From Naegleria gruberi (taxonomy: Eukaryota): DNA of 64,000 nucleotides. The stretch is taken from assembly GCA_000004985.1 (NCBI GenBank), contig GG738885.1. The stretch is one strand, 5' to 3'. Each line of letters opens with the position of its first letter. Position 1 is the stretch's first letter. Below are positions 10,407 through 53,194 of the stretch, one piece after another. The notes beneath the pieces are model-generated. The model saw nothing but the letters and a program-made list of their open reading frames with translations. It did no database searches and was not told the origin of the DNA. Made by a program: the position numbers and the translations under genes.

Positions 10407-13400
10407 TTATTCTTTCAGTTTCAAAGTAGAGCCAAGATTTTCTTTCAATTCAATTTTTTTGTTCATACTTTCATAACTGTCAGATAGGACAAAACGTGAG
10501 AAGGTATCGTCAATATTCATAATTATGGCACAATACAAATCTGAGAGAACTTCCTTAATTTCCTTATCGTTTTGTTGATTGTTTCTTACAGATTCGAATA
10601 TTTTATGGAAGGATTTCTTGGTATTGTGTGAAATGTTAAGTTCCATTGGAGAATTATTTTCAATAAATGTAGCTTTCCACTCTTCAAAATGTTTACACAA
10701 TTCTGTGGTTGCAGGTGTGTTGCCATTATTGATAGATTCGAATACTGGTGCAAGTTTAGTCCAGAATATTACATTTTCCAACGAATGCTCAGTTTTGGCA
10801 AATTGTTTGAAAATTTCACATAATGTTGGATTTTTAAGAATTTCATTCAGTTGATTATCTTCCTCAAGTATAGACTCCTCTTTCATTTTAGTATGCTTTC
10901 CACTAATTTTAGATTTAACTAATTCATAAATTGAGACTAGAGAAACTAATCCACCAAAACTCATAATTAACATGATATTATACAATAATTCGAAAGCAAT
11001 TTGAGCAGCAGATAAGCCCTGGTTTGAAGCTACAAGAAGTGAAAATCCAAGCCCATAAGTAATAATAAAGAATATAATGCTCGTAAAGAAGAAAATAAAT
11101 TCTTTTCTGAAAGCAAGATTGTCATTCACTATCAAGTAATTTTTGATTGGATTAATCACTAATTTCTTATCTTTTAAGGTCAGTTTGGTACTCAATTGAA
11201 CATATCTTAATTCCATATAAATATCAAAAAAGTGAATTACACAAACTAATAAAGACATGACCAAAACAAATGAAAATAATGAACCAGCCATGATTGATGC
11301 ATATTGACTTGAAGAGATTACTGCTGTTTGTTGTAAGGAAATGAAAATTACATAAAAAGCAATAAAAACACATGCAACAATCAAGTTAGCAATAATGGAG
11401 AAGGTTTTGCTTGAAAATAAAAGCTTAATCCACTTGAATTTCTTCTCATTGAGCACGTCAACTTCCTTCTCATCGAAAATAGCCATAATTTCATATAGAT
11501 ATCTAAATACAATGTATCGTGAGCTTAATATCAAATAGTTTAGAATAGATAAACAATAGAAAGTGGAAGCAATCATTGTAGAAACTTGTCTCACAATCAT
11601 TGAGTTTGGATTTTTTGCTAAACTTAGAGAATTTGCAATAATGTAAGTGAAAACAAGTTCAATTAATAGTGAAATTAACGCAAAGTATGGAATTATTCCT
11701 CTACTCTTGGTTGGTGTTTTCTTACATGTGACAATAACACCCACCAATGCAATTAATGTTAAAAATATTAGGAAACAACCAATAACAATGGATGCAATAA
11801 CACCACCTTCATTAGCTAATGTCACTTTGACGTCAATAAATGATGAAAATGAAGTTGTGTGATTACAATAGCAATTGACAACACTACTATTTTTAGAAAT
11901 TTCAGAAATGCATCCATCGGTAAGCCATTTCTTACTAGTTTCATCAAAAAACTTGCAAGAGACAACAAGTGAGGAATTATTTTGTACGCTTGACAAAATT
12001 TTAGAATCCACATTCAAGGAAAGTATAATAGGATTTGCCAAATTTGAAACTTGTAAGAATTGGCCATTTAAAATATATTTCAATTCAACAACTTTTGCAA
12101 TATTAACTGAAGAACCTTTGGAAACTTTGGAAATAATACTAGCATCAGTCAAATTACTTGTTAGTTCAGTAGCATTCGAATAGAGAGAAGCCAACTTTTC
12201 CATATTGAAATAAGTAATTGAACCAACTGAAACTCCTTCTCTTACCAGATCTGAAGGTGTAGAAATGGTTGTATTTCCGTCATTGAGATATGATGAAGAA
12301 TTGAGGTTTCTAACAACTGAAACAATAAATGAAGGTGTTTCAGTTTTAAAAATACTATCTTTCTCATCACTGGATTTGGAAGAAACGAGAATCAAGGTTT
12401 CAATTACAGAACTTGAAGAGTAATTTGAAGATACAATGACATTGGAATAGGCATTCAAAACTTGACTAATGGTTGTGTCTATAGCATTAGATGATTTCAA
12501 AGTAGATACTTCTAACTGGTTCAATTCAGATGAAATTGTCGAAATCAAATTCGAAACAGTGGAAACAATAGAAGTTGTAACTGATGATTGAGATGAAATG
12601 ACATTCAAAGCAGTAGAAACCTTCAATGTCTGATCAAGATCAGAGGTATTTCTCTGAACTGTTGACAATGCTTGTGTAACCATAGTCAAAACTGAAACAG
12701 CACTAGATGCTTTCGAATAAGTATCAGAATTTGAAGCAATACTAGCAATATCCTTTGTAGAAATCGAACCTAAGAATGACTCTGTCACTACATTTTCGTA
12801 TTTCATCACTTGAATTGTTTCAGCAGTTTTAAATGAATAAGAAATTCCTCCAAATGAAATTCTTAGTACTGCAGTAAAGTTTCCTTCAGAATTCAATGAA
12901 TATGAAACAATCATTGGATTGGCAGTCGATACAATAGTAGGGTTACCAATATTGGTATAAACACCATTGTTCGAAAACAGAACAGTATAAGTTGCACTTG
13001 TCAAATATGATTTGAGATTTGAATGATACTTGACTGCAATTAGCACAGTGGAATCAACAAAAGTGATAGTATTATCAAATTTGATTGAAATATCTGGTGA
13101 GCAATCAGTAGAATTACCAGAAAGTATCCATCCATCATCACAATAAGGAGTTAGTTTTCGAATAGCTAAATTGCCGTTGTCTGAAATATATATTGAGTTA
13201 TCATTTCTATCAACTGCTAGTGAATTAAGTCGGAACGAAAACAATGATGTCTTTCCATCTTTGTATCCTGATACACCAAACGTTCCTGCAATATTTGTTA
13301 TGAAACCAGATGATTTCTTTAACATTCGAATAGAACTTCTTGAATGTGATAAAATCAAATCACCATTTGATAAATAGAAAAAATCAGCAAGAGAAGTCAA

Positions 13401-15125
13401 TGGAGACTGAATAGCAATAACACTATTAGAAGAAGTATCCCAAATAGCACATGTTCCATTACCAACCAAAGTTATCAAGGTTCCATCATTTAAAATCTTA
13501 TTAATGGTACAATTAGAAGGAAAGTAAAATACAATACATCCATCGGTAGGATCAACTGCCAATCTTTCTGCCTTAAATGTTGTAGAATTGAAATACATGG
13601 AAATTGTTTGTGAACTAAGGTCAACCAATCTAATAGTTCCCAAATCAGCAACGTAAATCTTATTTTCATAAATGGCAATATCAGCAATGCTTCCAAATCC
13701 AGCATTGGAAAGAGGACCACCATCTCCATACCCTGAAGCACTGGTTGAGGTTGTTCCTACAACCACCACATAATTTCCAGTTATTTTGTCAATTTTCATA
13801 ATTAAACTTGGAACTGCATAATAAACTTCTCCATTCCATTCATCTATTGCACCAAATAGAACACCCAATGAAGAATTAGCAGCTGGTAAACCAATTGACA
13901 AGGCTGCAAAATCATCACTTCTTCCATCTCCTCCAATAATTGAAGAGTAACCACTTTCAAATTTGTGTAGGAAATATCTCTCAAAATCCAATCCATATAA
14001 TACTCCTGGTTTGGTTCTACTAGCAGCTATCAATGAAGTACCAACATACATAGTTGTAGATTTGACACTTGTTTGATTGTCACTTGAATATCCAATAAAT
14101 ATTTTGGATTTGCAATTACCTGCGATAGTTGTTTTGGTACCGTTAGTCAAATCAAACTTGTATATGTACTTTTGTTCTTCAGCAACTATTAATTTTCCAT
14201 TCAAATCAAAAAATGCAGAACTAGCTTTGATGACTGGAAGTAGAGTTTGGCTTGTGGAACCACCAGATAAATCATATTTGAAGATACTAGTCAATGCATT
14301 CACATATAGATTATTGTCTTGTTTGAACATTTTGTCAAAGAAAAATGGTGATGAGATGATTGGAGATAGAATAGTTCTGTTTCTCCAATTCATTAAACTG
14401 ACCTTTCCATTTTGTCCTTCAGAAATATAGAGTAAATCACCATTAACAAGCACATCTTGAGCTTGATATCCACTTCCTCCGTAAATAGTTTCAATGAATC
14501 CACTTGATATGTTAAATTGTCTTACACGGTTATTACCATAATCAGCAATGAATAGAATAGTTTCGTCTGGAGAAAGTTCCACTCCTAAAGGATTGTTTAA
14601 TCTAATGCTGTTCAAATCAGATGTACCATCACCAGAAAAATTTGCTGTTCCACATACTCCCACAAGTGTTGAAATGTTTCCATTCTTGATATCCAACTTT
14701 CGAATACATCCATTACCTTGTGCTATATACATGATTGTTTCGTCTTGTGTGAGCACCATCGAGAATGGAGATATTACACTGACAGAAAGTGCAGAACCGT
14801 CCCCAGGGATAGTTTTTCTATAATTACCAGCTACAAGACTAATAATTCCGTTGTTATCTATCTTTCTAATAGCAGCCATGGATGCATCAGCAATATACAT
14901 GGATCCATCTTTTGTTGGTATGATATCCTTGATGTAACTTAGGCATGACATGCTACTCTCGAATCCATCTCCAAATCTCTGTTGAAAAAGTTGTGAGTTT
15001 CCTCCTGCGAAAGTCGAAACTGAATACTTGACGTTCGGTGGTGTTTGTGTGTGAACGGTGGTCACCAACATACAAAGACATGCCAATAATAGAAGGATAT
15101 GACACGCCACTTGAAACACTTTCAT
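10407..15125 (-). CDS. Adhesion-GPCR-like receptor: signal peptide – NHL-repeat beta-propeller – Ser/Thr-rich stalk – GAIN/GPS motif – 7TM – C-terminal RGS domain
   Basis: ATG at 15123..15125 with a signal peptide MKVFQVACHILLLLACLCMLVTTVHTQ. NHL-type repeats (FSGDGTSDLNSIRLNNPLGVELSPDETILFIADYGNNRVRQF). GPS motif CKFFDETSKKWLTDGC-x12-CYCNHTTSFSSF (C..W..GC..CxCxH-T-T-F). Seven hydrophobic segments follow. C-terminal RGS signatures (FKQFAKTEHSLENVIFWTKLAPVFES...IIMNIDDTFSRFVLSDSYE). One uninterrupted 1572-codon ORF. Confidence 0.75.
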   Translation of the reverse strand: MKVFQVACHILLLLACLCMLVTTVHTQTPPNVKYSVSTFAGGNSQLFQQRFGDGFESSMSCLSYIKDIIPTKDGSMYIADASMAAIRKIDNNGIISLVAGNYRKTIPGDGSALSVSVISPFSMVLTQDETIMYIAQGNGCIRKLDIKNGNISTLVGVCGTANFSGDGTSDLNSIRLNNPLGVELSPDETILFIADYGNNRVRQFNISSGFIETIYGGSGYQAQDVLVNGDLLYISEGQNGKVSLMNWRNRTILSPIISSPFFFDKMFKQDNNLYVNALTSIFKYDLSGGSTSQTLLPVIKASSAFFDLNGKLIVAEEQKYIYKFDLTNGTKTTIAGNCKSKIFIGYSSDNQTSVKSTTMYVGTSLIAASRTKPGVLYGLDFERYFLHKFESGYSSIIGGDGRSDDFAALSIGLPAANSSLGVLFGAIDEWNGEVYYAVPSLIMKIDKITGNYVVVVGTTSTSASGYGDGGPLSNAGFGSIADIAIYENKIYVADLGTIRLVDLSSQTISMYFNSTTFKAERLAVDPTDGCIVFYFPSNCTINKILNDGTLITLVGNGTCAIWDTSSNSVIAIQSPLTSLADFFYLSNGDLILSHSRSSIRMLKKSSGFITNIAGTFGVSGYKDGKTSLFSFRLNSLAVDRNDNSIYISDNGNLAIRKLTPYCDDGWILSGNSTDCSPDISIKFDNTITFVDSTVLIAVKYHSNLKSYLTSATYTVLFSNNGVYTNIGNPTIVSTANPMIVSYSLNSEGNFTAVLRISFGGISYSFKTAETIQVMKYENVVTESFLGSISTKDIASIASNSDTYSKASSAVSVLTMVTQALSTVQRNTSDLDQTLKVSTALNVISSQSSVTTSIVSTVSNLISTISSELNQLEVSTLKSSNAIDTTISQVLNAYSNVIVSSNYSSSSVIETLILVSSKSSDEKDSIFKTETPSFIVSVVRNLNSSSYLNDGNTTISTPSDLVREGVSVGSITYFNMEKLASLYSNATELTSNLTDASIISKVSKGSSVNIAKVVELKYILNGQFLQVSNLANPIILSLNVDSKILSSVQNNSSLVVSCKFFDETSKKWLTDGCISEISKNSSVVNCYCNHTTSFSSFIDVKVTLANEGGVIASIVIGCFLIFLTLIALVGVIVTCKKTPTKSRGIIPYFALISLLIELVFTYIIANSLSLAKNPNSMIVRQVSTMIASTFYCLSILNYLILSSRYIVFRYLYEIMAIFDEKEVDVLNEKKFKWIKLLFSSKTFSIIANLIVACVFIAFYVIFISLQQTAVISSSQYASIMAGSLFSFVLVMSLLVCVIHFFDIYMELRYVQLSTKLTLKDKKLVINPIKNYLIVNDNLAFRKEFIFFFTSIIFFIITYGLGFSLLVASNQGLSAAQIAFELLYNIMLIMSFGGLVSLVSIYELVKSKISGKHTKMKEESILEEDNQLNEILKNPTLCEIFKQFAKTEHSLENVIFWTKLAPVFESINNGNTPATTELCKHFEEWKATFIENNSPMELNISHNTKKSFHKIFESVRNNQQNDKEIKEVLSDLYCAIIMNIDDTFSRFVLSDSYESMNKKIELKENLGSTLKLKE

Positions 15126-18847: not shown

Positions 18848-20487
18848 AAGTTTGCGTTGTGTGGTGAGTTGACGGTAGAGAAGAGTTAGAGTTTCGGAAT
18901 GGAAATTAATATCGAGATGAACATGTACATGTGTGATGATGAGGAAGGTGATGAGAAGTTGAAGAATTATTATTCAAATTATTTATAAAGTTAAAATTGT
19001 TGGTTAAATCATCCATGGATAGATCAAAGTCATCATTATCACTGTTGACTTGTAGGAACGTTTCTGCATTATGCATTTTTTTTAAATATTGAATGTTTAA
19101 TATTATTAATCTTTACAAAAAAAGATACAAGTACAGTAATTGATACTAATAACATAATATGCATTGTATAAAACCAATTAGGCAAGTGAAAATATAAAAG
19201 GATCTAATTGTGCAGAATATTTTCCCAACTTGAAATTCAGCTCGAATTCACCAGATCCAGAAAATATATACAATGGAGAATGTAAACATATTGTTGTTAT
19301 AGAAAGACTTGTCTGAATGTCAGTAATCAACTCTACACTAAATATTGTACAGTTTAGTGATCATAATTAAAGTAAACAAAATGTCTATAATTGAGCTTAA
19401 TTACAATGATCTTTTTCTAAATTCTAAGGCGTTGCTAACTATGAAATTCATTTTACTTGAACACTGACATGTCTATTTGAAGGATAAACTTATTGGGATA
19501 AGTAAACCAAGTGAAACATGAGAGTTGTTCATTTGGAAAAGTTTGCAGTTAACGAAAACCTTTCAACAAGACTAACAGCACGTTACAAGTTTATTCAACT
19601 TTCGAATAGTTCTTCATCAACACATTTTTACTGTTGTACACCATATTGTTAATTGAATCTAAATTGCTATTGAACAGTCTACCTCAAACATCTGAATCTC
19701 ACTCATTTTCATTCGAATCGCAACTAATGGAAACTTAAAGCACAACCAAACTCAATTTACCAGAAACTTCATCCCAACAATTTCAGCTCTTTGCGTACAA
19801 CACTAAAAAGAGTTTTCTCGCCAAATCTGGACTGACTACACTAAAACGAACAGATTCCTCTTAATTTGTATTTTAATTTTCCAGATGCGAACAACAATAG
19901 CGCTGTTAAGAATTTTCTTTTGAAGAAATTCTTCTTGCTTTACTCAGAATATTAGAGTTGTTTATGTGTACATTCTTGCAGTTGCGATGTAGTGTTCCCT
20001 TTAAAATCATTCATTTAAAAAAACACACAATTGATTTTTTGACTTTCGTTTAGTTTCGTCATCTTTGTAATACAATTTTTCATCGGGAAGAAAGTTGTTC
20101 TATTAAAATATCACACAACAGTAGGTGATCAATTCGATTCAATAGTAACGTACTTTGAAATTCAATATCTCTCTTTCACAATATAGAAATTAGTGTCACA
20201 GCTTTCGAATAGATTGGAAGAAACCCCTAGAGAGAACTAGCCTTTATTGATGAATCTCTAATCATCATCATTTCTAACACACTAACGACTTGCCCAATTA
20301 ATAGAATTCATTTAATCGTTAAATAGTTTACACTCTCTTTATTCGAAACGATAATAATTAAAAAGAAATACTGAATTTCTCTTTACATAACAACATTAAT
20401 TGAAAATAACAACAACAGTAACAGCAGTATTTCTGTAAGTAATTTTGCATGCCAAGTTTCCAATAATCTTTCGAATAGAATTTTACA

Positions 20488-21990
20488 ATGTTTCCATCCT
20501 CGTCCAATAATCAACAACAACAACAAACATTCCAAGATTTATTCATCAAATCCATTAACCAAACTCAAATTAATGGATCAACAAACAACGACATGTTTCA
20601 ATCAACCTATATAACAATTCCCAATGTTTCGAATAGTGGAAGCAGTAACAGTACTTCAACTTCTGCCACCATTCAAATCCCATCAAATACTACATGGAAT
20701 TTTGGAGCCACTGATCCACAACAACAATTGACTTTGAATGAAAGTAACGGTTTACATGCACTTTCGAATACAACAAATACCAATTTAGGTAACGCCTTAA
20801 GTAACTTTAATAACGATAAAGTTTTAGAACAAGCGCTCATCATGATGGTGAACGGCGCAAACAATAGAAACAGATCTCAAAGTGCTGGCTCGATTCCAAC
20901 ATCCAATTCATTAGGTGTCTCCCCAACACTTTCGAATAACAGCCCACAAACATTTGGCGGTTCAGCTCAAGGAAATAGTTTAGTGCAGATGAGCTCGTCC
21001 TTACCGAATTCAACGTGTGCACCTTCTTTCGTCCAAGGAAAGAGTTTCAATCCAGGTCAACTAGGTTTTACTCAACCGTTTACTGTACGATCAGATTATA
21101 AGGTTTCAACAACTGAAAATCAAGATTCCACTAATGCTCCTACTAATATCAATGGTTTACAGCTTATTTTCTCAGAATTATTGACCAATCCACAACATCA
21201 AACCAATTCCATGTTCAATCTTGGTCAATTAGGACAACAGCAGAATAATTTCAATTCTGCTAATCAACAAAATCAGTTTATTCTCCATTCCCAAGCTCCA
21301 ACCTCGCAACAACAAGTTAATAACAATCAATTCAGTCCAATTTTGAGTAGTTTGATGATTAGTCAACCATCAAGTCCAATTCAAGTCACCAATCAAATCG
21401 TTATCAATTCCAATCCAATGCCAAGTGTTTCTCCAACTAGTACAAGTCCTCCAACTCAACCGTTAACTACTATGAATATCAATCCAAGTTCCATTACCAC
21501 TCATGTATCGCCAACTTGTTCTCCCACCTCAACACCTAGCAGCTCACTAACCAAGTCAACCAATGGTGGAAAGCAAAGAAGACAAAGATCTGTCTCATGC
21601 ACAAGTCAGAGCTCACCTTATCCTCCAACCACCCAACAACAATTTACTTTCCATTCACCAAACGAAACCCAAGACAGTCCAAAGAAAGGCACCAGACGAT
21701 CTGGCATTAAATTTGCAATTGACTTTATGGACAATGCACAACAATTTGACATTAAGCACACAAGTCTCACTCCATCCACAATGAAACAACACATTGCTGA
21801 GAGAGATGAGAGAGAAAGGGCAGGTGTGAAAAAAAGAGGAAGACCAAAAGGAAGTGGTATAAAACAGCAAGTGAAGAGGGGAGATTTGTTGTTCTATCAA
21901 AATTGTTACAATTCAGTTGAGGGTTTGTATAAGGGAAGAGCAGATCCTGGAAGAGATGATGACGATGATGAAGGAGGATTTACAGTGTAA
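20488..21990 (+). CDS. Q/N/S/T-rich low-complexity nuclear protein with C-terminal AT-hook (KKRGRPKGS)
   Basis: ATG at 20488. Mostly low-complexity with poly-Q. The C-terminal basic cluster contains an RGRP AT-hook core. Acidic tail DDDDDEGG. Confidence 0.5.
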   Translation: MFPSSSNNQQQQQTFQDLFIKSINQTQINGSTNNDMFQSTYITIPNVSNSGSSNSTSTSATIQIPSNTTWNFGATDPQQQLTLNESNGLHALSNTTNTNLGNALSNFNNDKVLEQALIMMVNGANNRNRSQSAGSIPTSNSLGVSPTLSNNSPQTFGGSAQGNSLVQMSSSLPNSTCAPSFVQGKSFNPGQLGFTQPFTVRSDYKVSTTENQDSTNAPTNINGLQLIFSELLTNPQHQTNSMFNLGQLGQQQNNFNSANQQNQFILHSQAPTSQQQVNNNQFSPILSSLMISQPSSPIQVTNQIVINSNPMPSVSPTSTSPPTQPLTTMNINPSSITTHVSPTCSPTSTPSSSLTKSTNGGKQRRQRSVSCTSQSSPYPPTTQQQFTFHSPNETQDSPKKGTRRSGIKFAIDFMDNAQQFDIKHTSLTPSTMKQHIAERDERERAGVKKRGRPKGSGIKQQVKRGDLLFYQNCYNSVEGLYKGRADPGRDDDDDEGGFTV

Positions 21991-27603: not shown

Positions 27604-30469
27604 TTACAATTGATAAGGTAACCAAATTCTGTCTGGAATTGGTGGTTCATGATCTGCCAAGAAGGCAGTTGAGGAAGTTGGATTTAACATCATGAGTTGC
27701 ATGTCAAATTCATTAATTCCAACACCACTCATATTGAATGGACAAAGACAAGGTCCAAATGATCCAGTATTCGAAATATTCATGCTACTTTCAGGTAAAT
27801 TAGAAAGTGGAGCATCTTTAGAGCTGAGAATTCTCTTTCCATCTTTTAGAATTCCCAATCGAATCCAGAAACATCTGTCATATAATTTCAAAAGCCACAA
27901 GTCCCATTTTCCATCATTAGTTGTTTTGAAATAGTCCTTTCCTTCACTTGCTGATCCAATTTTAGAATCCAAATCAAAGTAGACCTTATCGAGCTCTGCA
28001 TGACTCGAAAAGACAATGAAATTCTTATCTTCAGGTACTTCATCCGAATTGGATGTCTTTTGTTGTAAATTCTTGTAAGTGTACTTGTTTCTGATACTTT
28101 CTGGAGCATATTCAATGTTACCAACGAGAGTTTTCTCATCTTCACCCAATCTGGAGTAGGCCTCTCCTGAAACAATATTTTCGACACCTTGTTGTTGAAG
28201 CTCCATGGCCATCTTCTTTCCAAATAGAGCTTCCTTAACAGGTTGATTCAAATAAAAGGCCATATCTGAAAAACCATACTTTTCAATTCTGTCCAACAAT
28301 TTCTGAACTCCCATGCCAAATGGATATTGTAAAACGTGATGAGCTGGAATGCCCTTCTTCTTGTCCTCAACTTTCGTCAATGGAACAAGTTCGAGTGCCT
28401 TGATAACATCCTGAACAAAGTGTTGATGATTGCAAGTTTTCAAATTGTACACATTGGTACCATTCCACAAACTACAAACTTCTGAGAGTTTGGATAAGAG
28501 TGCAGTAATATTCTTCTCTCCTTCCACTTTCTTAAGTGTAATGTAGTGGAAATGAGGATTGAAACGAAGCAGACCTTGAGGAGGTTTTCTAGATGGAATA
28601 ACGAGTGAATTCTCCTTCCATTCTAAAAACCAATTTCCAATCATGATACCAGTTCTCAATAATTTGTACCTATTCGTGTCTTTCATTTCAATCATGAATG
28701 ATTCGCTAAATTCAAAAACTACCAATTGACATTGTAAATAAGCTTCTTCCTTCTTTGAAGATCTACCAAACAATTTTGCCAAATTTGATTTCTTCTCTGG
28801 TTCGCACTCTTCACCATCATTGAGAGCAATGGTTCCAGACTTCTCACCAGTTGGATTATCAAAGAAGAGATAATTGTAACAATCAGGAAGTGCCAAATTC
28901 TCTGACATGAAAATCTTTTCCCTGTGTGAAAAAATTCTTCTATCAATCGGAGCAAGTTTCTTGAAAACATTCGAAACCAAAACTCTTTCCAACTCGCTCA
29001 GCTGCTTAAAATCAATCAAGAGAGGTAAACGTTCTGACAATTGAACACTCACAAAATCAATAGTAATATTTGATGTAGTGGCATGTGTCTGCTCAGAATC
29101 TGGAAACATCTTTTCAATATTATTTGTTTGTTGTGAAGCTGCCTCTGAACTAGAAGTTGCATCAAATTTCACATCAAATAATTTCTTCTTCTTTCCACTA
29201 CTATTCATCTTCTTTTGAATAATTGTATCAAAAGATGAAGGATCTGTCAATAACAAGTAAATATTCTTATATCTTGACTTGTACTTTCCCAATTGTTCAA
29301 TTAATATCAAATCATTATTCAAAATTTGTGGGAAAACTGTTTGTCTAAGTGATTTCTCATCAATTGGTCGAACACAATTATCAAGATCACTATTAACCAG
29401 ACAGGAAACTAGACGATCACGACTCTTCTTTTTTTCTTTACCATTTGATGAAGAGGAGGTGGAAGAGGATGAATTATTCATCATTATATTTTCCATCATG
29501 CTATTACTTCCAATGGAATCGAGTGATGGACGAATCATACTATTCGAATCTGATGATGAAGATGAATTAAGATCTGCTTCCTCTGTTGAATTATTGATCA
29601 TGGGAATGATGCTTCCATTTAGTGCCATTGATTTTCTTGTTGTATATCCAACAGGTTTTGGTGGTCGATAATTGACAGGTGAAACATCACTTGGTGTTGT
29701 GGGCGTAGTTGAATTTGAAGAGAATGGGGATTGATTTCCAAAGGATGTTTGTGGACTGTTGGGTGAATGTCCTTCACTAGCAGAATTTGAATGTTCAACT
29801 GCACTAATAGGATTATTCGAATTTGGACGAATCATTGATGAATCTCTTCTAGTGACTACAATACCAGTTCGATTACCGAATCTACTTGTTTTTTCCAAAT
29901 TTTCTGATGAAGCAGATTTCCTTGTTATTGCTACTGAATCCTTTCTTTGATTACTTGGAGAAATACTTGGAGAAGAAACATTATTCGAAACTGTTGTTCT
30001 CGTTGTTAAAACTCCTCCCATTTCTACATTTTCCAACTTGTCTTGAATTTCCATTAGATTCTTCTGATGAGAAATATGTTTTTGAATTGATGAATAGATT
30101 AGTTCGGCTTCGTCTTGGGAAATAATATTCTCCAAATCTGAAACTTCGAATTGGACAAGAGCAGAGCCATCCCACGATTCTTGTTTTAGAGTTGTTAATG
30201 TTGATTGTGAAAATCTGTAATTTAAAGTTCTTTCCAAGTGTCGAAGAAAGGAAAGAAAATCACCAGTTGACCAACGAGAAATTGGTTTAGATTCATCAAA
30301 TGGAAGATCTTCCGATAATGTATCTTTTGTAAATAATAAGTGTTTGTGCAATGGGTGAAGTGAGGATGACAAATTTTAATGTATAACACACAATTAGTTT
30401 CGAATAGAGATCAATATAAAGTTATTCGAAACTAGAATACAAACCTTCTGAAGAAGCAGAAATAAACAT
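27604..30469 (-). CDS. SAM-domain-containing protein (about 930 aa), function unknown; 5' exon + intron
   Basis: Putative first exon ATG at 30467..30469 (MFISASSE). A GTTTGT...AAAAG intron (about 30335..30444) joins in frame to DTLSEDLPFDESKPISRWSTGDFLSFLRHLERTLNYRF...ALVQFEVSDLENI (SAM-like). There is a long Ser-rich linker. The C-terminal roughly 400 aa is globular with no assignment. Confidence 0.45.
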
Positions 30470-31279: not shown

Positions 31280-31673
31280 GGATCTCGCTTTGGTGTTTGA
31301 TTGGATATTATGATAATCATCACTATTGATTACAAAGAATAGTATAGTTTAGGATAAATATTGTTGAGCGAAAAGAATGAGAAAGATCTCTCTTGGACGT
31401 TTCGTGTAAAATGACTTCGACTAGTATTTATGCATGTTGTGTTGACTATTGTTGAAAGGTTGTATCGCTGGTACAGAGTTTCGAATAAGTGTTTGGAGAA
31501 ATAGGCTAAAATACCGACCCTTCAACTCGTGTCGACACATCTCAAAAAGAATCACTACCATTTACATTATTTAATATCCAATTTGTCAGACCTACAATTT
31601 TGTAAATTATAAAAATGCAGTGTAAAAAAATATTTAAAAATTATTACAAATTTCAATAAAAATTATTTATAAA

Positions 31674-37612: not shown

Positions 37613-40600
37613 ATGATCGTTACATTTGCCTCCAATGTAGAGACTCACTATATGGGCTATATTGTGGTATGTCCTGCAGGAGAGAAGGCCATTCTCGATA
37701 AGAAGAGAGGTGGTTGGTGTTATATTCACTGCAAATTGAAAACTCCTTCCAATAATAATAATACTGAAAATTCATCATCATCCTCATCTCAAGGTACCTC
37801 AACAACAACATCATTCACTTGGGGAACACTTAGAGTACCAGCCATTTACCTCAATATTGATGATAACTTTTCCTCTTCGACTTCTTCCGATCATCATGAT
37901 AATTCTGATAACAATAACAAATTAAAAACACCTGGAAGTGCCTCTGAGGAAGATGCTCTCAATCCGTTGGAATGTGTCGAATATAAACAACCAGGCAGTA
38001 ACAACTCAACAACAGGCGCATCAACAACATCGCCATCAACAGCAACGAATAATACCAATTTGGTGAATGGCGCCAAATTTTCTCCTCATCAAAAAGTATC
38101 ATCATCACCTCAAGGTAAAACAACGACGGAACAACAACATGATACTGATCAAAAGAAGAGACCAGGTAGAACGTGGAGTGAAATTAATCAGGAATTTTTG
38201 GATGTTGTTCTTGATGAGAATATGGATGAAGGAGGAGGAGAGGCATCGAAACGATCTTCCACCTCATCAATTGGTTTAATTCAAAATATAAAGCCTACAA
38301 AGGATACGAGTAATGCTCTGATATTGGCATCTTATAGATCTTCAATGGATTCAGCAGCTATTTTTGATCAATTGGTGTATCATAACAATACGAATATTTC
38401 ATCATTGATAGGTGGTGGTGGTGCCAGCAGCAGTTCGAATAATACACCAACAACACCTGGAGGTAGCAATAAGAAGGCTGTGAAAAAAGTGGTCAAGAAG
38501 GTTGTACCAACAGTCGAACAAACAATACCAATTATTGAAGAGAATGCTAAATCAACTCCAGATGGTTCTGTTGAACAACAACCAATCATACCCGATAATA
38601 CTGTTCAACAAATGGAAGTTAAGGAGCCAACAGAGGCAGTAACAGAAAAACCAGTAGAAGAACCTAAAATTGATGCTCAATTGGATACTGTTCATTTAAA
38701 TGATGATGTGACAAGTACACGTAAAACCATTTCAATTGATTCTAGAGTGAGAGTAGCTCCAGAAGATCCTTGGGCAGGAGATGAAGAAGAAGATTTGGAA
38801 ACATTTGACACTGAGACAGATGGAGATTTTGTTTTAGAACATTCGACACGTGAAACATTTGACAATTCAGAGTTTGATTTGGAAGAATTGCTTGCTATGG
38901 CCGATATGGAAGAAATGGCAAGTTATGAACCTAATGTTGATAGTCAACAAATTGAAATTTACAAGACCAAATTACCTCACTTCTTTCACTTTGATGCAGC
39001 AAGTGATGATAGAAAGAACAAGTTACTGCATCACATTGCACTCCAACATGCGGCAAGAAAATTGGTCAATGTGGGTGCTGATTATGATTTGAAATTGGCC
39101 ATTCAACAAGGATTGGATAAAACCAGAGGAAAAGTTGTCAATAGAAAGGCAACCATTTTCTCTGGAGTTTCACCATTACAATATCAAGATTTTAAAAAGT
39201 TTTCAGTGGAAGAAGCTGGAAAACTGGTATCAAGAGCATTTGCTGATTGGTGGAAATTAAAGAAATTTGTAAATTACATGAAGACAGCTCCAGAATTCAA
39301 ACAACAGAGATTGAGACAAAACTGTCTGAAAGAAATCCTCTCCACAGAGAGAAGCTATGTCAATCAATTGGAAACATTGTACTATGACTTTTTCTTACCA
39401 ATGAAAAAGAATAACTTTGCCATTTTCAATCACTACAATCCTGCTCCAAATATTACTGCTTCCAATGTTGTTTCTCGTGATGGTCTCACTCCTGAGGAAC
39501 AATATAACATCATCTTTAGTAATATTGAGCAAATTTTAAAGACCAATACTGCCCTCTTACACGACTTGGAAATGGATTACAAGATGCACTACCCTAAAAA
39601 TCACTTCCCTTCAATCTTCAAGAAAATTCTCCCATTCTTGAAAGTGTACACTGTATATGTAAATAATTATGATAAGGCTAACGAACTTGTAGAAGAACTC
39701 TCTTTGAGAAATCCAAAGTTTAATGAGCTTTTGGAAAGCGTTTACAATAAGAAGAGTGTCACTCTTCAAAGTTTGTTAATTACTCCAATTCAAAGAATTC
39801 CTAGACTCAAAATGCTATTCCAAGATCTATTCAGGAGAACTATTCCAACCCATGTTGAATATAGTGTAATTGAAGAAACCTTGGCCATCCTTAATGAGCT
39901 TGCCCTCTTTGTCAATGAAAAGAAGAGACACGATGAAAATAATATCATCTTCCTTCGTCTCCAACAAATTTTAAGCAAGAGATATGGCAACTTGGTAACT
40001 CCTCACAGAAGATTTTTAAAGCGTGATGATTTTAGAGTTGTTTGCTCTAGAAAATTCCTCAATTCAGATTGCGAAGTTTATCTATGTAATGATATAATGA
40101 TTATTCTGCCAATGACACCAGAAAGAGGTCTCAGAATAGATTACAGTCATTTGATATTCTTTGCCTTTTCAGAAATGGACATAATCTCTGACGAAGATTT
40201 GAATGATGAAGAGAAGAAGGACTTTACCATTCGTGCATTTTTACGTAGTTCAGTTTTTACCTTCAAATTTGAAGCTATCAACGGTACAGAGAGAATCAAA
40301 TGGGAAAAGGACATTAGAGAATTAATTGATATGGAAAAATCAAGATGTAAAAAGTATGGAGTCAATCCAAGTTTAAAGCAAGATGATAAGAAACCACACG
40401 AAGAAAAGAATACTTCTACCTCTTCCGATAAGAAATCTTCGGAGGAAACTAGTCCAAGATCTAACGATTCTTCCTCTACTACCTCCACCTCTTCCTCGTC
40501 TGTTCACGTAGCACACAGTTCCCACCATTACACCCAAAGCTTGAGTGGATTGTTAAATACAAGTGGAAACAATGGTTCAGCAAGTCCTTCCCTTTTGGGT

Positions 40601-42277: not shown

Positions 42278-42721
42278 ACCTTAATAAAAATGATCACTCT
42301 ATCACCCACAACCTGACATTCTCAAAACCAATTTATCGTACCAAATTATACTCCAACTTCCTCTTCAAAACCAACACTCTAACTATGTTTTTATTATTTC
42401 CTTCGAATATTTGGTTTTCATCCGTTCCCATAAATGGATCGGGTTGTTATCGCTTGCGATACATCTAAAAAAATACGCGCTTATTGTCCACCTCAGAAGA
42501 CAACACATGGTGATGGACGAATGTAAAGTCGAGGTGATTTTAATGTGTACGACAAGTGGTGAAGGAGACTTTTCGACCATGATTGGATCTTACGCATCAA
42601 AGAGTTGAAATTTCCCTCATCTCTCTTGTTGCTATGATCCTCAATATAAATAGAGGGAAGAAAATCTCCATCAATACAATACAACAATAAGAAAAAAACA
42701 AAACAACACAACAACTTGATA

Positions 42722-47143: not shown

Positions 47144-47416
47144 TTTTTTGTTTGTTGATATTCTGGTCTATGAGTTTGTGCTCATTAAATACTTTTTTGA
47201 ACAATGATGGAAACTCAAAACGAAACATGTAAGGTTACAAATTTAGATAGAAAACTGATTCAACACCATGCATCAAAATCTTTATAAATGCTAATCGTAG
47301 ATAATTCTTCACATTTCAATATTGGTTAATTGGAAGAATATTTACAATGTGTTATCACATATTGGAGCTTAAAATGATACTTTACTTTTGTTTCGAATAC
47401 CAAATTGGTAAAACTA

Positions 47417-48805
47417 CTATTGGAGATTACATTTTTGCTTTGTTCGTACTTTGGGTGATCCTATTGCCTTTTTACAATAAAAGTTTTGAACTAATTCCCT
47501 AACTTTTTGTTTAAGATTCGAATCGAAATCTGGTGCATCACTAATTACTAGTTCAGAAATACTTCCATACTGCTGAACATAATCTATGAATGCATGTAAT
47601 TGCTGCATTACTGAACCTATTATTATGAATGATTAGAGATTGAAGTAATTTTGGTTTGGATTTCAGATACTTAATTATTCCTGAATCAGTATTACCACAA
47701 TTAATAACTGTTAATCTAGTAATGGATCATTCCGTATTCCCAAATAACTCAAATCCATCATCTCCAATGTTTTGGTTTGAAGAAATAACCAATTCTCTCA
47801 AATGTTTCATATTTGCAATGATTTTACATGATTTAAACGAAATGGCATTGTTGCTCAAATTTAGATAATGCATTTTCTTAAATTCATTCCTACTCAAAAA
47901 TTCCATAACTGTGCTATCCTCAATATTATTGAATCCAACATGTAAATATTCCAAACTATAACAATGACACAACTAGGTCAACCCATTTCCAATTTTGTTA
48001 TCATGTAAATTGAAATGTTTCAATAATTTCAAATTTCCAAAATTTTTCAAACCTTCGCTACCTATCATATTCATTTCCAAATGTAATTCTTCCAGTTTAA
48101 CATTTTCTGATAAATAATTGGCTCCAACATCTCCTATTTGATTTTTTCTCACATCCAATTGTTTGAGTTGAATAGTTTAGTTCAGTGTGATTCCAATTTA
48201 TAAAGATGTTCCAATGCTGATTTTTTCAAATCAATCAAATAAATACACTTTCAACTTTTTAGCAAATTTGCTTTCGAATATTGAAATTAATGATTTTGAA
48301 TGCAAGTGACCGAATAATATTAATTTCTCCAATGGCCAATCCAATTTATCAAAAAGTAAATTTTCATCTCCCGAATTTGTCATTATTTTCATGGAGAGTG
48401 ATTTAATTTTTGACTTGCTTTCGAATAGTAAATTAATACTTTTAATACTCAATCCAGGTAATTCCATTTCTTGTAATGTTTTCAATTTTTCAATTTCAAT
48501 AATTAAATCATCACTACAGCTACTTTTCAATTTCAATACTTTCAAATTGGTTAACATGGAAATAAACGAATCTAAACTTATTCTCGTTTTGAAATTTAAA
48601 TGTGTTACCTTGCTCAATTTATCAGAATATTCAATTCGTGGGAATTTCTTGGCAGCAGCGGAAAGTAAAAAGTTTTTATGGATTTGTAATTTTCATTCCA
48701 ATATTTACAAACTAATCTGACATTGTTTAAAATCCATCGATATTCGAAATAGATGAAAATTTGATCAAAAATTATTTCGTGCGAAAGCAGAGAATGTACT
48801 TGCAT
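47417..48805 (-). pseudogene. F-box + RNI-type LRR gene, fragmented (in-frame TAG, frameshift): probable pseudogene
   Basis: Five collinear minus ORFs encode an F-box (LSHEIIFDQIFIYFEYRWILNNVRLVCKYW) then RNI-like LRRs (NQIGDVGANYLSENVKLEELHLEMNMIGSEGLK...). An in-frame TAG at plus 47973..47975 (CTA) sits between ...KIGNGLT and CHCYSLEYL.... The 48614/48617 junction overlaps out of frame. Confidence 0.45.
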
Positions 48806-49145: not shown

Positions 49146-50054
49146 ATGGCCACATCATCTTTATCTTCCTCACCATCATTATCAACATCCTCATCTTCAG
49201 TAGCAACACTAACACGCCAACAGCAATTGGTTCAACTCGAATTTAATCATGAGGGAAAATTTGCACTCATGACCCTCAACAACAAACCAGTAAATTCCTT
49301 AACACTCTCAATGATGAATTGCATCATTTCAAGTATTGAACAAGTGGAACAATATTCGCAAGCTCCAATGAATGCCTTGGTGATTACTTCAGCATGCCGA
49401 GGAGTTTTCTCAGCTGGATTGGATTTGAAATCGTTGTGTACTAGTTCGTTGGAATATTTGACTGAATTTTGGAATGTGCTGCAGAGAATGTTTATGAAAC
49501 TCTATTCGTGTCCATTGTTTACTGTTGCAATGATTAATGGACAATGTTTTGCAGGTGGATGTGTCTTGAGTTTGGCTTGTGATTATAGAATTATTCATGA
49601 ACAGTGTTCTATTGGGCTGAACGAAACTCAATTTGGATTAGTTCCTCCATGGTTCTTTATTGCTGCCTATGAGAATGTTATTGGAAAGAGATTGTGTGAA
49701 ATGCATGTTCAATTGGGAAGTTTATTACCAGCCAATGAAGCTTTGAAAATTTCACTTGTTGATGAAGTTCACTCCAATCCAAACTCAATGAAAGAATCAG
49801 CTCTGAAACAAGTAATGAAATGGAATAAGGTCAACCAATTTGCCAAGAGAGAATCCAAGCTTTTATTAAGAAAACCACTCATTGATCAGCTCACTGGATG
49901 TTGTAAGGAAAGAACTGAACAAGCTGTGAAGGTGATTGCTTCAGATAAGGCACAACAAATGATTCGTGGCCATCTCGAAAGTTTACACAAAAAGCAACAA
50001 GCAGCTGCCAATCAAAAGAAGGACGAAACTGCATCACGACCTTCAAAGTTATAA
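49146..50054 (+). CDS. ECI1: Δ3,Δ2-enoyl-CoA isomerase (crotonase superfamily, ECI1/DCI-like), probable mitochondrial
   Basis: Near-collinear with animal ECI1: VITSACRGVFSAGLDLKSL, INGQCFAGGCVLSLACDYRI, CSIGLNETQFGLVPPWFF, LQLGSLLPANEALKISLVDEV. Ser-rich N-terminus, presequence-like. Confidence 0.85.
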   Translation: MATSSLSSSPSLSTSSSSVATLTRQQQLVQLEFNHEGKFALMTLNNKPVNSLTLSMMNCIISSIEQVEQYSQAPMNALVITSACRGVFSAGLDLKSLCTSSLEYLTEFWNVLQRMFMKLYSCPLFTVAMINGQCFAGGCVLSLACDYRIIHEQCSIGLNETQFGLVPPWFFIAAYENVIGKRLCEMHVQLGSLLPANEALKISLVDEVHSNPNSMKESALKQVMKWNKVNQFAKRESKLLLRKPLIDQLTGCCKERTEQAVKVIASDKAQQMIRGHLESLHKKQQAAANQKKDETASRPSKL

Positions 50055-50121
50055 ACCTTCACTGTTTATTGGATTGTGAACATTTTCATTGTAAACGAAA
50101 CTCATTTCCGATCCATTCCGA

Positions 50122-52257: not shown

Positions 52258-52414
52258 TTTTACAAACAGTCAACAGTAAACAAATTCATTTAATGAAGTT
52301 GGTGAAGTTCGAGTAATTATTGGAACTGCAAATATCACCAAATTAAAATCAAATTAGAAAAAAAAAGCCACAACTCCTGTTAATCACCACCTGTAATCCT
52401 CATCCACCATCATC

Positions 52415-53194
52415 ATGAAGCGAACACTAAATGATTTCTTACAAACCTCAGATAAAAAGAAACAATCAACTCTCAAGAAGATAAAAAGTAATTCCGAAGT
52501 TTCTGGTGCGCCAGTAAAACAAATTTCTTCTTATAAAACGGATTCGGAAATTGGTGGTTTATATATTATTGAGAATATTATTGATGTGGCAGAAGAACGA
52601 AAATTAGTAAAATTCATTGATTCTCAAAAGTGGAACGATGAAATATCGAGAAGGACTCAACATTATGGAGTTTCTTATAATTATGGCGCAAGAGGTGTTA
52701 AGGAAGCTCTGAAAGTGCCACCAGTTCCATCAGAATTTTCAGATTTACTGGAAGAAATTAAGAATAAGGAAGGATTGGATTCTATTCGAAATTTGATGGA
52801 AGGAATTGATTTTAAACAAGTCATAATCAATGAATACAAGGGAGCCAAGCAAGGCATCTCAAAACATGTTGATCATTGTCAAGATTTTGGTCCTCTAATA
52901 TTAATTCTCAGTTTGGGTGATGAATGCGTAATGAAATTCCACAAATTAGAACAAGTGAAAGAAGAAGATTTGAAAAAGAAAAAAGTGAAACGAACAGAAG
53001 TATCACCATCAGAATGTTACGATAGAAGAATGCCCAGAAGATCACTCATTATTCTCTCAGGAGATGCCAGATATCAATATCAACATGAAATTCCCAAAAC
53101 AATGGTCTTTAAAATTGATGGTAAACAATTCTTGAAAAGAAGTGAAAGTTACCGAAGAGTTTCCATCACTTATAGATCCCTAACAACAGATTGA
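52415..53194 (+). CDS. AlkB-family Fe(II)/2-oxoglutarate dioxygenase
   Basis: HVDHCQD (HxD iron ligands), a distal His in QYQHEIP, and the C-terminal RRVSITYRSL (the R-x-S-x-T-x-R 2OG-binding signature of AlkB homologues). Confidence 0.7.
   Translation: MKRTLNDFLQTSDKKKQSTLKKIKSNSEVSGAPVKQISSYKTDSEIGGLYIIENIIDVAEERKLVKFIDSQKWNDEISRRTQHYGVSYNYGARGVKEALKVPPVPSEFSDLLEEIKNKEGLDSIRNLMEGIDFKQVIINEYKGAKQGISKHVDHCQDFGPLILILSLGDECVMKFHKLEQVKEEDLKKKKVKRTEVSPSECYDRRMPRRSLIILSGDARYQYQHEIPKTMVFKIDGKQFLKRSESYRRVSITYRSLTTD

Follow-up and report, generated by a model that had tools for sequence, protein, structure and literature searches.

Does a short word built on the palindrome TTCGAA, found in spacers, an intron and coding sequence of one stretch of Naegleria gruberi DNA, mark a site that is read on the DNA itself? 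To our knowledge, almost nothing is known of cis-regulatory DNA in Naegleria or in the Heterolobosea generally. A literature search found no prior description of the TTTCGAATA motif and, for the genus Naegleria, no described promoter motif, chromatin-accessibility map or nucleosome map. ChIP-seq data for H3K4me3 and H3K27ac, nanopore calls of 6mA and 5mC and a re-assembly exist for N. gruberi (PMC12695648); a link of the motif to the 644 6mA-marked genes was considered and set aside, as the paper reports no motif. All motif statistics given here derive from one 64 kb stretch of N. gruberi DNA, the window.

Over-representation and consensus of the motif

An earlier note had claimed that the 9-mer TTCGAATAG is over-represented against fewer than one expected copy, with about ten copies on the plus strand and two to three on the minus strand. 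Exact search returned 11 matches, nine on the plus and two on the minus strand; three of the coordinates given earlier were off by one base and the rest were exact. The excess is confirmed within the 64 kb window against both shuffled and Markov backgrounds: 0.39-0.90 copies are expected under models of order 1-3, and 0.45 in 100 dinucleotide-preserving shuffles, with a maximum of 3.

TTCGAATAG is a subset of a stronger and broader motif, the true core of which is TTTCGAATA with the consensus (C/G)TTTCGAATA(G/A/C). In the 64 kb window TTTCGAATA/TATTCGAAA occurs 23 times (0.9-2.0 expected) and is the commonest 9-mer, tied with a CAA triplet repeat. The 8-mer with the highest enrichment, TATTCGAA (31 vs 5.6, z=10.3), is contained within it. 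Motif positions 2-8 are near-invariant, and the one-mismatch neighbours of TTTCGAATA total 50 against ~44 expected. TTTCGAATA is a sharp word and the strongest sequence signal in the 64 kb window. The motif contains a CpG, the observed/expected ratio of which is 0.46 in the host DNA; an order-3 Markov model already covers the TCG/CGA/TCGA context and leaves a 6- to 12-fold motif excess. The earlier note mentioned neither this broader core nor three features described below: that the sites cluster, that they are phased at ~150 bp and that the word is species-specific.

Further than +/-2 nt from the motif, the flanks have an information content of about 0. From the palindrome a dimeric factor had been proposed. 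The core TTCGAA is indeed palindromic; the selected flanks, however, differ from each other, with a T 5' of the core and TA 3' of it, and the full palindrome TATTCGAATA is present at 0 of 51 TTCGAA sites. A monomer, heterodimer or multi-domain reader would therefore fit no worse than a symmetric homodimer. The sites are listed in Table 1.

Table 1 Motif sites and loci in the 64 kb window
Feature	Position	Strand	Remarks
TTCGAATAG, exact search	12175, 13157, 13325, 19601, 20204, 20470, 20628, 30399, 48420	+	
TTCGAATAG, exact search	29540-29548, 52782-52790	-	
Isolated intergenic copy CTTTCGAATAAT	873..880	+	~370 bp upstream of - strand ORF, first ATG 499
Seven antisense copies in 1572-aa RGS/GPS/NHL ORF 10407-15125 (- strand)	10593..14706	+	10593, 10737, 12175, 12712, 13157, 13325, 14699; all three frames
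Densest array, 7 TTCGAATA sites	19601..20938	+	19601, 20204, 20342 (- strand), 20470, 20628, 20763, 20931
Cluster in/just upstream of SAM-like gene 27604-30372 (- strand)	27768..30430	-	Sense copies 27770, 29543, 29816, 29984
Weaker TTCGAAT/TTCGAAG copies, SAM-like gene cluster	28970, 30145		
Inverted pair, putative first intron of SAM-like gene	30399(+)/30425(-)		
Copy GTTTCGAATAAG	31480..31487	+	ORF-poor region 30.4-32.3 kb
Sense coding copy (M-I-S-N-T)	32799..32806	+	RGS-domain membrane protein ORF 32299-33885, 449 bp past first ATG
Sense coding copy (S-S-S-N-N)	38434..38441	+	RhoGEF ORF 37613-42277
Intergenic copy CCTTCGAATATT	42402..42409	+	320 bp upstream of P450-reductase fusion gene, first ATG 42722
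Cluster over unannotated F-box/LRR-like gene, - strand, ~47417-48805	47392..48748		47392(+), 48273(+), 48420(+), 48743(-)
Antisense coding copy (S-I-R-N-L in the gene's frame)	52783..52790	-	2OG-Fe(II) oxygenase ORF 52415-53194
Intergenic copy GTTTCGAATATA	54007..54014	-	216 bp upstream of ORF 54225-54716

Constraint on the DNA in coding and non-coding sequence

The motif is enriched ~12-fold in coding DNA (13 vs 1.1 expected) and ~17-fold in non-coding DNA (10 vs 0.6), the most enriched compartment, where its density is 2.8-fold greater than in coding DNA. By tally, ~15 sites lie sense and ~14 antisense to transcription, so that orientation is independent of gene direction. The coding copies were compared with 1000 synonymous-codon shuffles, in which every protein and each gene's codon usage were kept. 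The nine sense coding copies of TTCGAATA compare with 1.46 in the shuffles and the eight antisense copies with 1.27, and none of the 1000 shuffles reached either count. Since these protein-preserving shuffles never attain the observed numbers on either strand, the constraint on the motif acts on double-stranded DNA, independent of coding frame and strand. This bears out the earlier proposal of a DNA-level rather than protein-level constraint, as do the antisense copies within one gene (ORF 10407-15125), which span all three reading frames, and the enrichment of non-coding DNA.

The same data weigh on a protein-level or codon-usage effect, according to which the word encodes frequent peptides (Ser-Asn, NHL 'IRK', 'FES') and the period equals a protein-repeat length. 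All nine sense coding copies of TTCGAATA are in one frame and read Ser-Asn-(Ser/Thr/Asn), the codon pair TCG-AAT occurs 15 times against ~6 expected, three of the seven copies in the RGS/GPS/NHL ORF lie antisense at the equivalent NHL-repeat 'I-R-K/M-L' position, encoded via the rare codon pair ATT-CGA, and the 48273/48420 pair in the F-box/LRR-like gene encodes '[LI]FESK', 49 residues apart. Yet 14 of these 15 codon pairs follow a T, the Arg at the NHL positions is encoded by CGA, only 9% of Arg codons, and the period persists without the repeat-domain genes. A codon-pair or dipeptide artefact is likewise out, given a TCG-AAT bias of only 2.4-fold and the outcome of the shuffles. The protein-level explanation is largely refuted, and we regard it as very improbable.

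Clustering, orientation and phasing of the sites

The sites are clustered (variance/mean = 2.0 in 2 kb bins), and site-free stretches of 5-10 kb exist. A modest 5' bias is apparent: for 20 of 31 sites a start codon is no more than 500 bp away, compared with 47% for random positions, and for 6 of 31 a gene end is, compared with 43%. One large ORF has six to seven copies in its interior, distant from every start codon. The densest array extends over the 1.6 kb upstream of ORF 20488-21990 and its initial 450 bp, with successive spacings of 603, 138, 128, 158, 135 and 168 bp. One of its copies had been placed just upstream of the ATG at 20488 and was found 18 nt upstream. The product of this ORF is Q/N/S-rich with an AT-hook-like RGRPKG at its C-terminal, and a homologue search with it came back empty, without even a self-match. 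The copy at 30399, earlier assigned to the putative first intron of the SAM gene, does lie within a GT...AG intron-like segment directly 5' of the main exon, with its inverted partner at 30425. Along the window the sites form same-strand runs (P=0.011, runs test): plus from 873 to 20931, minus from 27770 to 30425, plus from 31480 to 48420 and minus from 48743 to 54009.

Nine of the 12 gaps shorter than 400 bp lie in 128-168 bp, an excess reached in 0 of 20000 replicates of a within-cluster uniform null and having P=4e-4 under a scan-corrected jitter null; a spacing of exactly 168 bp occurs three times. The best period in the periodogram is 144-152 bp (scan-corrected P<1/3000), and among 928 control words the motif words rank 1, 3, 4, 7, 9 and 13. 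The phasing remains after the densest array is dropped (P=0.019) and after both repeat-domain genes are dropped (P=0.002), when the signal comes mainly from two loci. Part of the ~150 bp signal coincides with protein-repeat length, with NHL 'IRK' positions 56 residues apart and LRR-like 'FESK' positions 49 apart. The GC profile around the sites (n=31) shows no nucleosome-like oscillation; a hint that the sites share one helical face (R=0.82 at 10.5 bp, p ~0.005) is post hoc. Neighbouring sites are thus spaced ~146-150 bp apart and the spacing passed several controls, yet two loci carry most of the signal.

Origin of the copies

As a sharp word between unrelated flanks, the motif is neither a repeat, nor a transposon scar, nor a tRNA B-box. 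The earlier note had also considered remnants of a repeat, and this suggestion did not hold. Had the copies been left behind by a dispersed repeat, by a MITE or transposon, or by a ~150 bp satellite that decayed down to its core, their large number, their regular ~150 bp spacing and the threefold recurrence of 168 bp would be accounted for. Repeat finders, however, detected no repeat family at the motif sites, motif-anchored segments fail to align with each other, the three 168 bp intervals among them, and the uninformative flanks speak against a dispersed repeat, a transposon or a target-site duplication alike. In a metagenome scan for three phased copies, 119 of 120 matches were plain tandem repeats whose units share at least 60% identity, an unrelated phenomenon. 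Insertion of a 9 bp cassette was rejected as well, as the copy at 27770 arose via substitution (I-S-N-T vs V-T-H-T in the orthologues) and aligns without indel. At tool sensitivity the repeat-relic explanation is refuted, and it seems scarcely credible. Rfam places one 5S rRNA gene and two tRNAs in the window, none of them at motif sites, and non-coding RNA genes were accordingly dismissed as owners of the motif.

The orthologous locus in sister species

TTTCGAATA is absent from 45 kb of N. lovaniensis and from 24 kb of N. fowleri. In these species the orthologue of gene 27604-30372 carries copies of another word, GCCACTTGTCA, in the upstream region and the 5' exon and, in N. lovaniensis, additionally in intron 1. 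TGCCACTTGTCA is present four times in N. lovaniensis (0.007-0.013 expected) and three times in N. fowleri (0.005-0.009 expected). The N. lovaniensis/N. fowleri spacers have otherwise diverged, and the longest stretches that remain identical in them are the intergenic GCCACTTGTCA copies; the 5' coding copies are in one frame inside a Ser/Thr-rich tract. As GCCACTTGTCA is both footprinted and over-represented, sharp words of such a type are genuine cis-elements in Naegleria. No 150 bp phasing of GCCACTTGTCA was detectable in N. lovaniensis (P=0.41, few sites).

TTTCGAATA and GCCACTTGTCA are mutually exclusive between the species compared. The comparison of one locus with different motifs comprises a single orthologous locus (n=1), with a chance of cluster overlap roughly estimated at ~0.15. 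TCG is kept at two coding copies in all three species, a marginal result given baseline codon identity (p ~0.05). TCGATCGA is enriched in N. fowleri; it was not retained as an analogue, for CGA is a far commoner Arg codon in N. lovaniensis and N. fowleri and may explain part of the enrichment. A distant homologue contig, which covers the conserved 3' part of the gene only, contains neither TTTCGAATA nor GCCACTTGTCA, nor any third word in their place.

Comparison with known DNA elements

The closest resemblance by core is to the CHR (cell-cycle genes homology region), an element that late cell-cycle genes carry and that LIN54, a tesmin/CXC-domain protein of the DREAM/MuvB complex, recognises. 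LIN54 reads DNA through tandem domains rather than as a symmetric dimer, and a reader of this kind would suit asymmetric motif flanks. The CHR is a hexamer, TTYRAA, the commonest functional forms of which are TTTGAA, TTTAAA and TTCGAA, with TTTGAA predominant; its sites function in either orientation close to transcription start sites (PMC4176359). The motif core TTCGAA is thus among the three commonest functional hexamers. In contrast to the CHR, the CG is near-obligatory in the Naegleria word: in the same context, TTTCGAATA occurs 23 times against 1.7 expected, the TTTGAA variant TTTTGAATA 10 times against 4.7 and the TTCAAA variant TTTCAAATA 4 times against 4.7. With the TTTGAA form only 2-fold enriched and the inverse form not enriched, a canonical CHR was rejected. 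Moreover, the Naegleria word measures 9-11 bp, compared with 6 for the CHR, its copies are phased multi-site arrays reaching into gene bodies, and the genes near them encode RGS/GPS/NHL, LRR, RhoGEF and unknown proteins, none recognisably related to the cell cycle.

The B-box of tRNA genes and extra-TFIIIC sites (consensus GGTTCGANTCC) differ by a G before and a C after the TTCGAAT core; the corresponding words GTTCGAATA (1 vs 0.8) and TTTCGAATC (0 vs 1.6) are not enriched, and the motif word is absent from the window's own tRNA B-boxes, GGTTCAATTCC and GGTTCGACCCC. A heat-shock element was also discarded, since HSF needs TTCnnGAA/GAAnnTTC and TTC and GAA abut without a spacer in every motif copy.

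In arrangement, the Drosophila DRE/DREF and BEAF-32 sites (TATCGATA, CGATA clusters) offer a parallel: short words with a CpG central in a palindrome, clustered close to the 5' ends of genes in a compact, densely packed genome, with readers that act as promoter or insulator factors. The sequences differ, however, the reader of the Naegleria word, a BED-finger protein or another, is putative, and we know of no DRE/BEAF-32 sites inside coding sequence or phased at nucleosome length. CENP-B boxes of alpha-satellite, Plasmodium SPE2 arrays (PfSIP2) and the C. elegans pairing-centre motifs (HIM-8/ZIM) are regularly spaced arrays with one recruited protein. These words are species-specific, lie at about nucleosome-length intervals or in dense clusters and mark particular chromosomal regions. 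They are located in tandem repeats or non-coding DNA, whereas unique, largely protein-coding sequence separates the Naegleria copies. The nearest relative by locus is GCCACTTGTCA, which shares genus and orthologous locus with TTTCGAATA and is also sharp and strongly over-represented; it differs in its sequence and in its lack of detectable 150 bp phasing. Its non-coding copies are conserved between two species.

Proposed function and alternative explanations

Judging from sequence, we give about an even chance to the reading that TTTCGAATA is a double-stranded DNA recognition site of a sequence-specific protein of the N. gruberi lineage, either a transcription factor or a chromatin/architectural factor. 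A putative protein would read the TTTCGAATA site, and sites would be placed in permissive coding sequence as well because the intergenic spacers measure only 100-300 bp; there they could be accommodated by rare codons (TCG for Ser, CGA for Arg) and by tolerated Ser-Asn-Ser/Thr/Asn residues. The ~150 bp register may reflect one site per nucleosome-length unit, with the sites held in linkers for access, or with the bound factor itself phasing nucleosomes at target-gene 5' ends. An extension of this reading, that each Naegleria species has its own 'address' word (TTTCGAATA in N. gruberi, GCCACTTGTCA in N. lovaniensis and N. fowleri) across promoters, introns and coding sequence of the same loci, with co-oriented ~150 bp arrays in N. 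gruberi, we consider unlikely.

Besides the protein-level and repeat explanations discussed above, two further alternatives have to be weighed. A polar or architectural signal at the chromosome level, serving replication, recombination, cohesin/condensin loading or as a nucleosome-positioning anchor, has models in bacterial Chi, KOPS and uptake sequences, in nematode pairing-centre motifs and in CENP-B boxes. The excess in coding and non-coding DNA on both strands, the species-specific word, the long same-strand runs regardless of gene orientation, and the regular spacing with its hint of a common helical face would all agree with it. The sites are clustered rather than even, though, with long empty stretches and a preference for the 5' parts of genes, and no eukaryotic counterpart of RecBCD or FtsK is known to us; we consider such a signal rather unlikely. 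Alternatively, the motif could be a neutral by-product of mutation or repair that needs no reader, its CpG being retained or regenerated in the motif context through context-specific T:G mismatch repair, like the very-short-patch repair of bacteria, or through a context that escapes methylation. A CpG-containing motif in a CpG-poor genome would suit this idea, as would copies in weakly constrained DNA (Ser/Asn/Thr low-complexity tracts, intron, spacers), the slightly raised number of the C-to-T derivative TTTTGAATA, and the reported CpG depletion of Naegleria despite very low 5mCG (PMC12695648). Against it, the excess persists over the order-3 Markov model, one-mismatch neighbours, which conversion would deplete, are not depleted, and a context effect leaves clustering, 5' bias, co-orientation and phasing unexplained. 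We consider a neutral origin quite improbable.

Implications

As the strongest signal in the window, TTTCGAATA provides a concrete and cheaply testable entry point to cis-regulation in Naegleria, and an oligonucleotide pull-down with the site form (C/G)TTTCGAATAG could reveal the putative reader. Phasing throughout the genome, if confirmed, would make this word an unusual example of a specific motif that keeps step with nucleosome-length units over unique, largely coding sequence, and also a clear one of codon choice constrained by regulatory information. If the address-word reading is true, a DNA-binding protein and its site, co-evolving fast, would organise 5' chromatin in a deep-branching eukaryote, with a regulatory code that overlaps the genetic code via forced rare codons. 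Defined promoter elements would further aid the development of expression tools for a poorly tractable group that includes the pathogen N. fowleri.

Results

Abundance and sharpness of the motif

All motif statistics derive from a single 64 kb window. An exact search returned 11 matches to TTCGAATAG, nine on the plus and two on the minus strand, against an expectation of 0.45 (at most 3 in 100 dinucleotide-preserving shuffles) or of 0.39–0.90 under Markov models of order 1–3. The over-representation proposed in an earlier note was thus borne out, with coordinates that were exact except for three, each one base off. That 9-mer is, however, only part of the signal, as the broader core TTTCGAATA/TATTCGAAA had been missed. 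With 23 copies against 0.9–2.0 expected, this core shares first place among the 9-mers of the window with the CAA triplet repeat. The top enriched 8-mer is TATTCGAA (31 vs. 5.6 expected, z=10.3) and the top enriched 10-mer CTTTCGAATA (10 vs. 0.33 expected). Substitutions at motif positions 2–8 (TTCGAAT) are essentially not tolerated, and the 27 one-mismatch neighbours are together at expectation (50 observed, ~44 expected). In the flanks, only three positions are informative: C or G at −2, T or less commonly A at −1, and A at +1 after TTCGAAT.

Constraint at the DNA level

The motif is enriched in non-coding DNA (10 vs. 0.6 expected) as well as in coding DNA (13 vs. 1.1). All nine sense coding copies are translated as Ser-Asn-(Ser/Thr/Asn), a one-frame bias expected of any coding-constrained DNA word since frame 0 often yields a stop and frame 1 rare codons. 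In the coding sequence of the window, the TCG-AAT codon pair is over-used by 2.4-fold only. Among 1000 shuffles preserving the proteins and the per-gene codon usage, TTCGAATA averaged 1.46 sense and 1.27 antisense copies, and none attained the observed 9 or 8, respectively. Antisense copies use all three frames inside a single gene. A protein or codon effect is therefore largely refuted, and the constraint acts on DNA rather than on protein, as the earlier note had argued.

Its other suggestion, remnants of a repeat, is largely refuted as well: the 60-base flanks of the 11 TTCGAATAG copies share no relationship, repeat finders returned no family at motif sites in the window, and motif-anchored units did not align. 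These units include three intervals, each of 168 bp exactly, that might have pointed to an element with a target-site duplication; being unalignable, they speak against it. An insertion origin of copy 27770 was rejected, as I-S-N-T in N. gruberi corresponds to V-T-H-T in both sister species without an indel. An RNA signal was rejected since motif orientation is independent of transcription (~15 sense and ~14 antisense in our own tally). Within the window, Rfam identified one 5S rRNA gene and two tRNAs only, none at motif sites.

Clustering, position and orientation

Motif sites are clustered (variance/mean 2.0 in 2 kb bins), and one cluster includes the putative first intron of the SAM-like gene, where the earlier note had placed copies. 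A start codon lies within 500 bp of 20 of the 31 sites (47% of random positions), a gene end within 500 bp of only six (43% of random positions). Strand is locally correlated, the 22 plus and nine minus sites forming eight runs (P=0.011).

The Q/N/S-rich ORF and the SAM-like gene, which hold the densest sense-strand clusters, are without an N. gruberi protein-database entry and appear to be absent from public annotation. The SAM-like gene has clear orthologues in N. lovaniensis and N. fowleri but is without about 180 residues found there; no homologue was found for the C-terminal part of the Q/N/S-rich ORF.

Coordinates of motif clusters and other features in the N. gruberi window, N. lovaniensis sequence L002 and N. 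fowleri syntenic locus L125
Feature	Position	Remarks
Motif cluster	19.6-20.9 kb	7 sites; upstream region and first 450 bp of unannotated Q/N/S-rich ORF with AT-hook-like C-terminus
Motif cluster	27.7-30.4 kb	SAM-like gene and its first intron
Motif cluster	10.6-14.7 kb	antisense within 1572-residue receptor-like ORF
Motif cluster	47.4-48.7 kb	F-box/LRR-like gene
Q/N/S-rich ORF	20488-21990 (+)	
SAM-like gene	27604-30372 (-)	
P450-reductase fusion ORF	42716-45994 (+)	cytochrome P450 with flavodoxin, FAD and NAD reductase domains
5S rRNA gene	10140-10258 (-)	complete (Rfam 101.5 bits); solitary between two convergent protein genes
tRNA-Asp	7960-8030	dispersed
tRNA-Lys	22111-22183	dispersed
GGTCAACCAAY	369, 13619, 15431, 36533, 44498, 49829	6 copies
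Inverted pair	53459-53486	perfect, CCTGTCAA-(12 nt)-TTGACAGG; spacer of ORFs 52415-53194 / 54225-54716
Inverted repeat	16919-16990	perfect, 27 nt, 18-nt loop; short spacer of - strand ORFs 15367-16866 / 17035-18156
(GC)TGCCACTTGTCA	L002: 7353, 9826, 10113, 10939, 11224, 11425	N. lovaniensis
(GC)TGCCACTTGTCA	L125: 7396, 9664, 9819, 10941, 11397	N. fowleri
TCGATCGA palindrome	L125: 4730, 8528, 12112, 12551, 13344, 17038, 23385	N. fowleri

Spacing of about 150 bp

Nine of the 12 neighbour gaps below 400 bp measure 128–168 bp and only one is shorter, a pattern attained in none of 20,000 uniform re-placements of sites within clusters (P=4e-4 under a scan-corrected jitter null). With 55 weaker, PWM-level sites included, the pair-distance histogram shows troughs each 150 bp up to 1 kb. 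The periodogram peaks at 144–152 bp (scan-corrected P<1/3000), and motif-derived words hold ranks 1, 3, 4, 7, 9 and 13 for periodicity against 928 control words of like abundance. The unrelated, AT-rich ATAATTA gave the second-highest periodic signal in the control periodogram (period 160 bp, power 20.3); a general rhythm in base composition at nucleosome scale could be the cause, or, with 928 words compared, chance.

Some of these gaps track protein-repeat length, since the antisense copies 14699, 13325 and 13157 encode the equivalent NHL-repeat position I-R-K/M-L and the pair 48273/48420 encodes [LI]FESK, 49 residues apart. The three NHL positions each use ATT-CGA, though CGA makes up just 9% of Arg codons. 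Periodicity persisted without the repeat partners (P=0.001–0.002), without both repeat-domain genes (period 146, P=0.002) and without the densest array (period 152, P=0.019); after these removals it is carried mainly by two loci. A nucleosome-like oscillation was not seen in the GC profile around motif sites. In a post hoc test, same-strand gaps preferred one helical face (R=0.82 at 10.5 bp, p ~0.005).

Words of the sister species

Neither the 45 kb of N. lovaniensis nor the 24 kb of the syntenic N. fowleri locus contains TTTCGAATA, with ~1 copy expected in each. Another sharp word, TGCCACTTGTCA, occurs there four (0.007–0.013 expected) and three times (0.005–0.009 expected), respectively, and was not found in the N. 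gruberi window. Its densest cluster lies over the orthologue of the SAM-like gene, where copies are found upstream and in the 5′ part of exon 2; N. lovaniensis has intron-1 copies as well. Those in the exon share a single frame, x-T-S-G, inside a Ser/Thr-rich tract, a layout that parallels the Ser-Asn copies and the intron-1 pair of N. gruberi. In the protein alignment, one N. lovaniensis copy (S-V-T-S-G-S-N) adjoins an N. gruberi motif position (T-T-V-S-N-N). The correspondence of the clusters by locus is suggestive only (n=1, chance overlap ~0.15 by our estimate). The rare TCG codon of the N. gruberi coding copies 28970 and 29984 is kept in all three species, a marginal retention (~0.05) against a baseline codon identity of 52–54% between N. 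gruberi and the other two.

Intergenic DNA has diverged between N. lovaniensis and N. fowleri, and its longest stretches of perfect identity are TGCCACTTGTCA copies, namely GGTATTGTCACTTGTCAAAA ~180 bp upstream of the SAM-like orthologue and ACTCTTGACAAGTGGCA ~60 bp upstream of the neighbouring gene; hence sharp words of this kind behave like real promoter elements in Naegleria. (GC)TGCCACTTGTCA, hundreds-fold over expectation in both species, has the appearance of a Naegleria promoter element not described before. Four copies have a TCGA behind them at a constant distance (ACTTGTCAnnnTCGA), which suggests a composite site.

The 8-mer most enriched at the N. fowleri locus, TCGATCGA, is a palindrome with 7 sites (14 counted over both strands vs. 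1.4 expected); it is read in several frames at conserved residues (S-I-D, I-D-R, D-R-I) and was not found in the N. gruberi window. Frequent CGA Arg codons in the N. fowleri lineage may partly account for it.

Setting of the window and other words

The window has a GC content of 34% and a CpG observed/expected ratio of 0.46. Naegleria is reported to be CpG-depleted despite very low 5mCG, with transposons as the sole place of 5mC (PMC12695648). Long ORFs cover about 76–78% of the window and include RGS, GPS/NHL, RhoGEF, Kelch, DUF4116 and P450-reductase fusion genes. One ORF, for an enoyl-CoA isomerase, matches an N. gruberi protein at 100% identity and its N. lovaniensis orthologue at 53%. The P450-reductase fusion resembles bacterial P450 BM3 and fungal P450foxy. 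Copies of TTCGAATA are found at distances of 335 and 480 bp from the 5S rRNA gene.

GGTCAACCAAY is a second DNA-level word (GGTCAACCAA expectation 0.18), scattered without clustering and translated in different frames, such as G-Q-P-T in the P450 and K-V-N-Q in the isomerase gene. N. lovaniensis has few copies of it (two of GGTCAACC in 45 kb). CCTGTCAA occurs nine times in the window (1.2 expected) and has no copy in the 45 kb of N. lovaniensis. The 27-nt inverted repeat could form a strong hairpin.

Discussion

The motif is sharp and strand-symmetric, selected independently of coding, clustered with a 5′ bias, co-oriented, held in a ~150 bp register and species-specific. The best-supported reading is a double-stranded-DNA recognition site for a lineage-specific DNA-binding protein, which would read the motif; the very short spacers would have caused sites to spill over into coding sequence. 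The register would correspond to one site per nucleosome-length unit, either through linker placement for access or through active phasing. The earlier note took the palindrome to be consistent with a dimeric factor; the TTCGAA core is indeed palindromic, but with flanks this asymmetric, a reader that is monomeric or multi-domain fits better than a symmetric homodimer.

If the motif were a polar or architectural signal at the level of the chromosome, the strand runs and the regular spacing would be accounted for, but the clustering and the 5′ bias would not. An origin as a by-product of CpG mutation or repair would leave unexplained the enrichment above order-3 context, the arrangement of the sites and the undepleted one-mismatch neighbours.

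Among known elements, the CHR site bound by LIN54 comes closest in sequence, and TTCGAA is one of three common CHR forms (PMC4176359). Membership is nonetheless unsupported since in the window TTTGAA, the canonical form, shows hardly any enrichment. The motif lacks what a tRNA B-box, a heat-shock element or a canonical CHR requires. In behaviour it is similar to DRE/BEAF-32, promoter or insulator words with a CpG core from compact genomes, and to the regularly spaced recruitment motifs CENP-B box, SPE2 and nematode pairing-centre motifs. In contrast to these spaced arrays, it sits in unique, largely coding sequence. No earlier description was found in full-text literature combining Naegleria with the word, promoter, motif or chromatin. 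On the basis of this one 64 kb window, we rate the motif as a predicted cis-acting protein-recognition word of unusual layout, being coding-embedded, phased and co-oriented.
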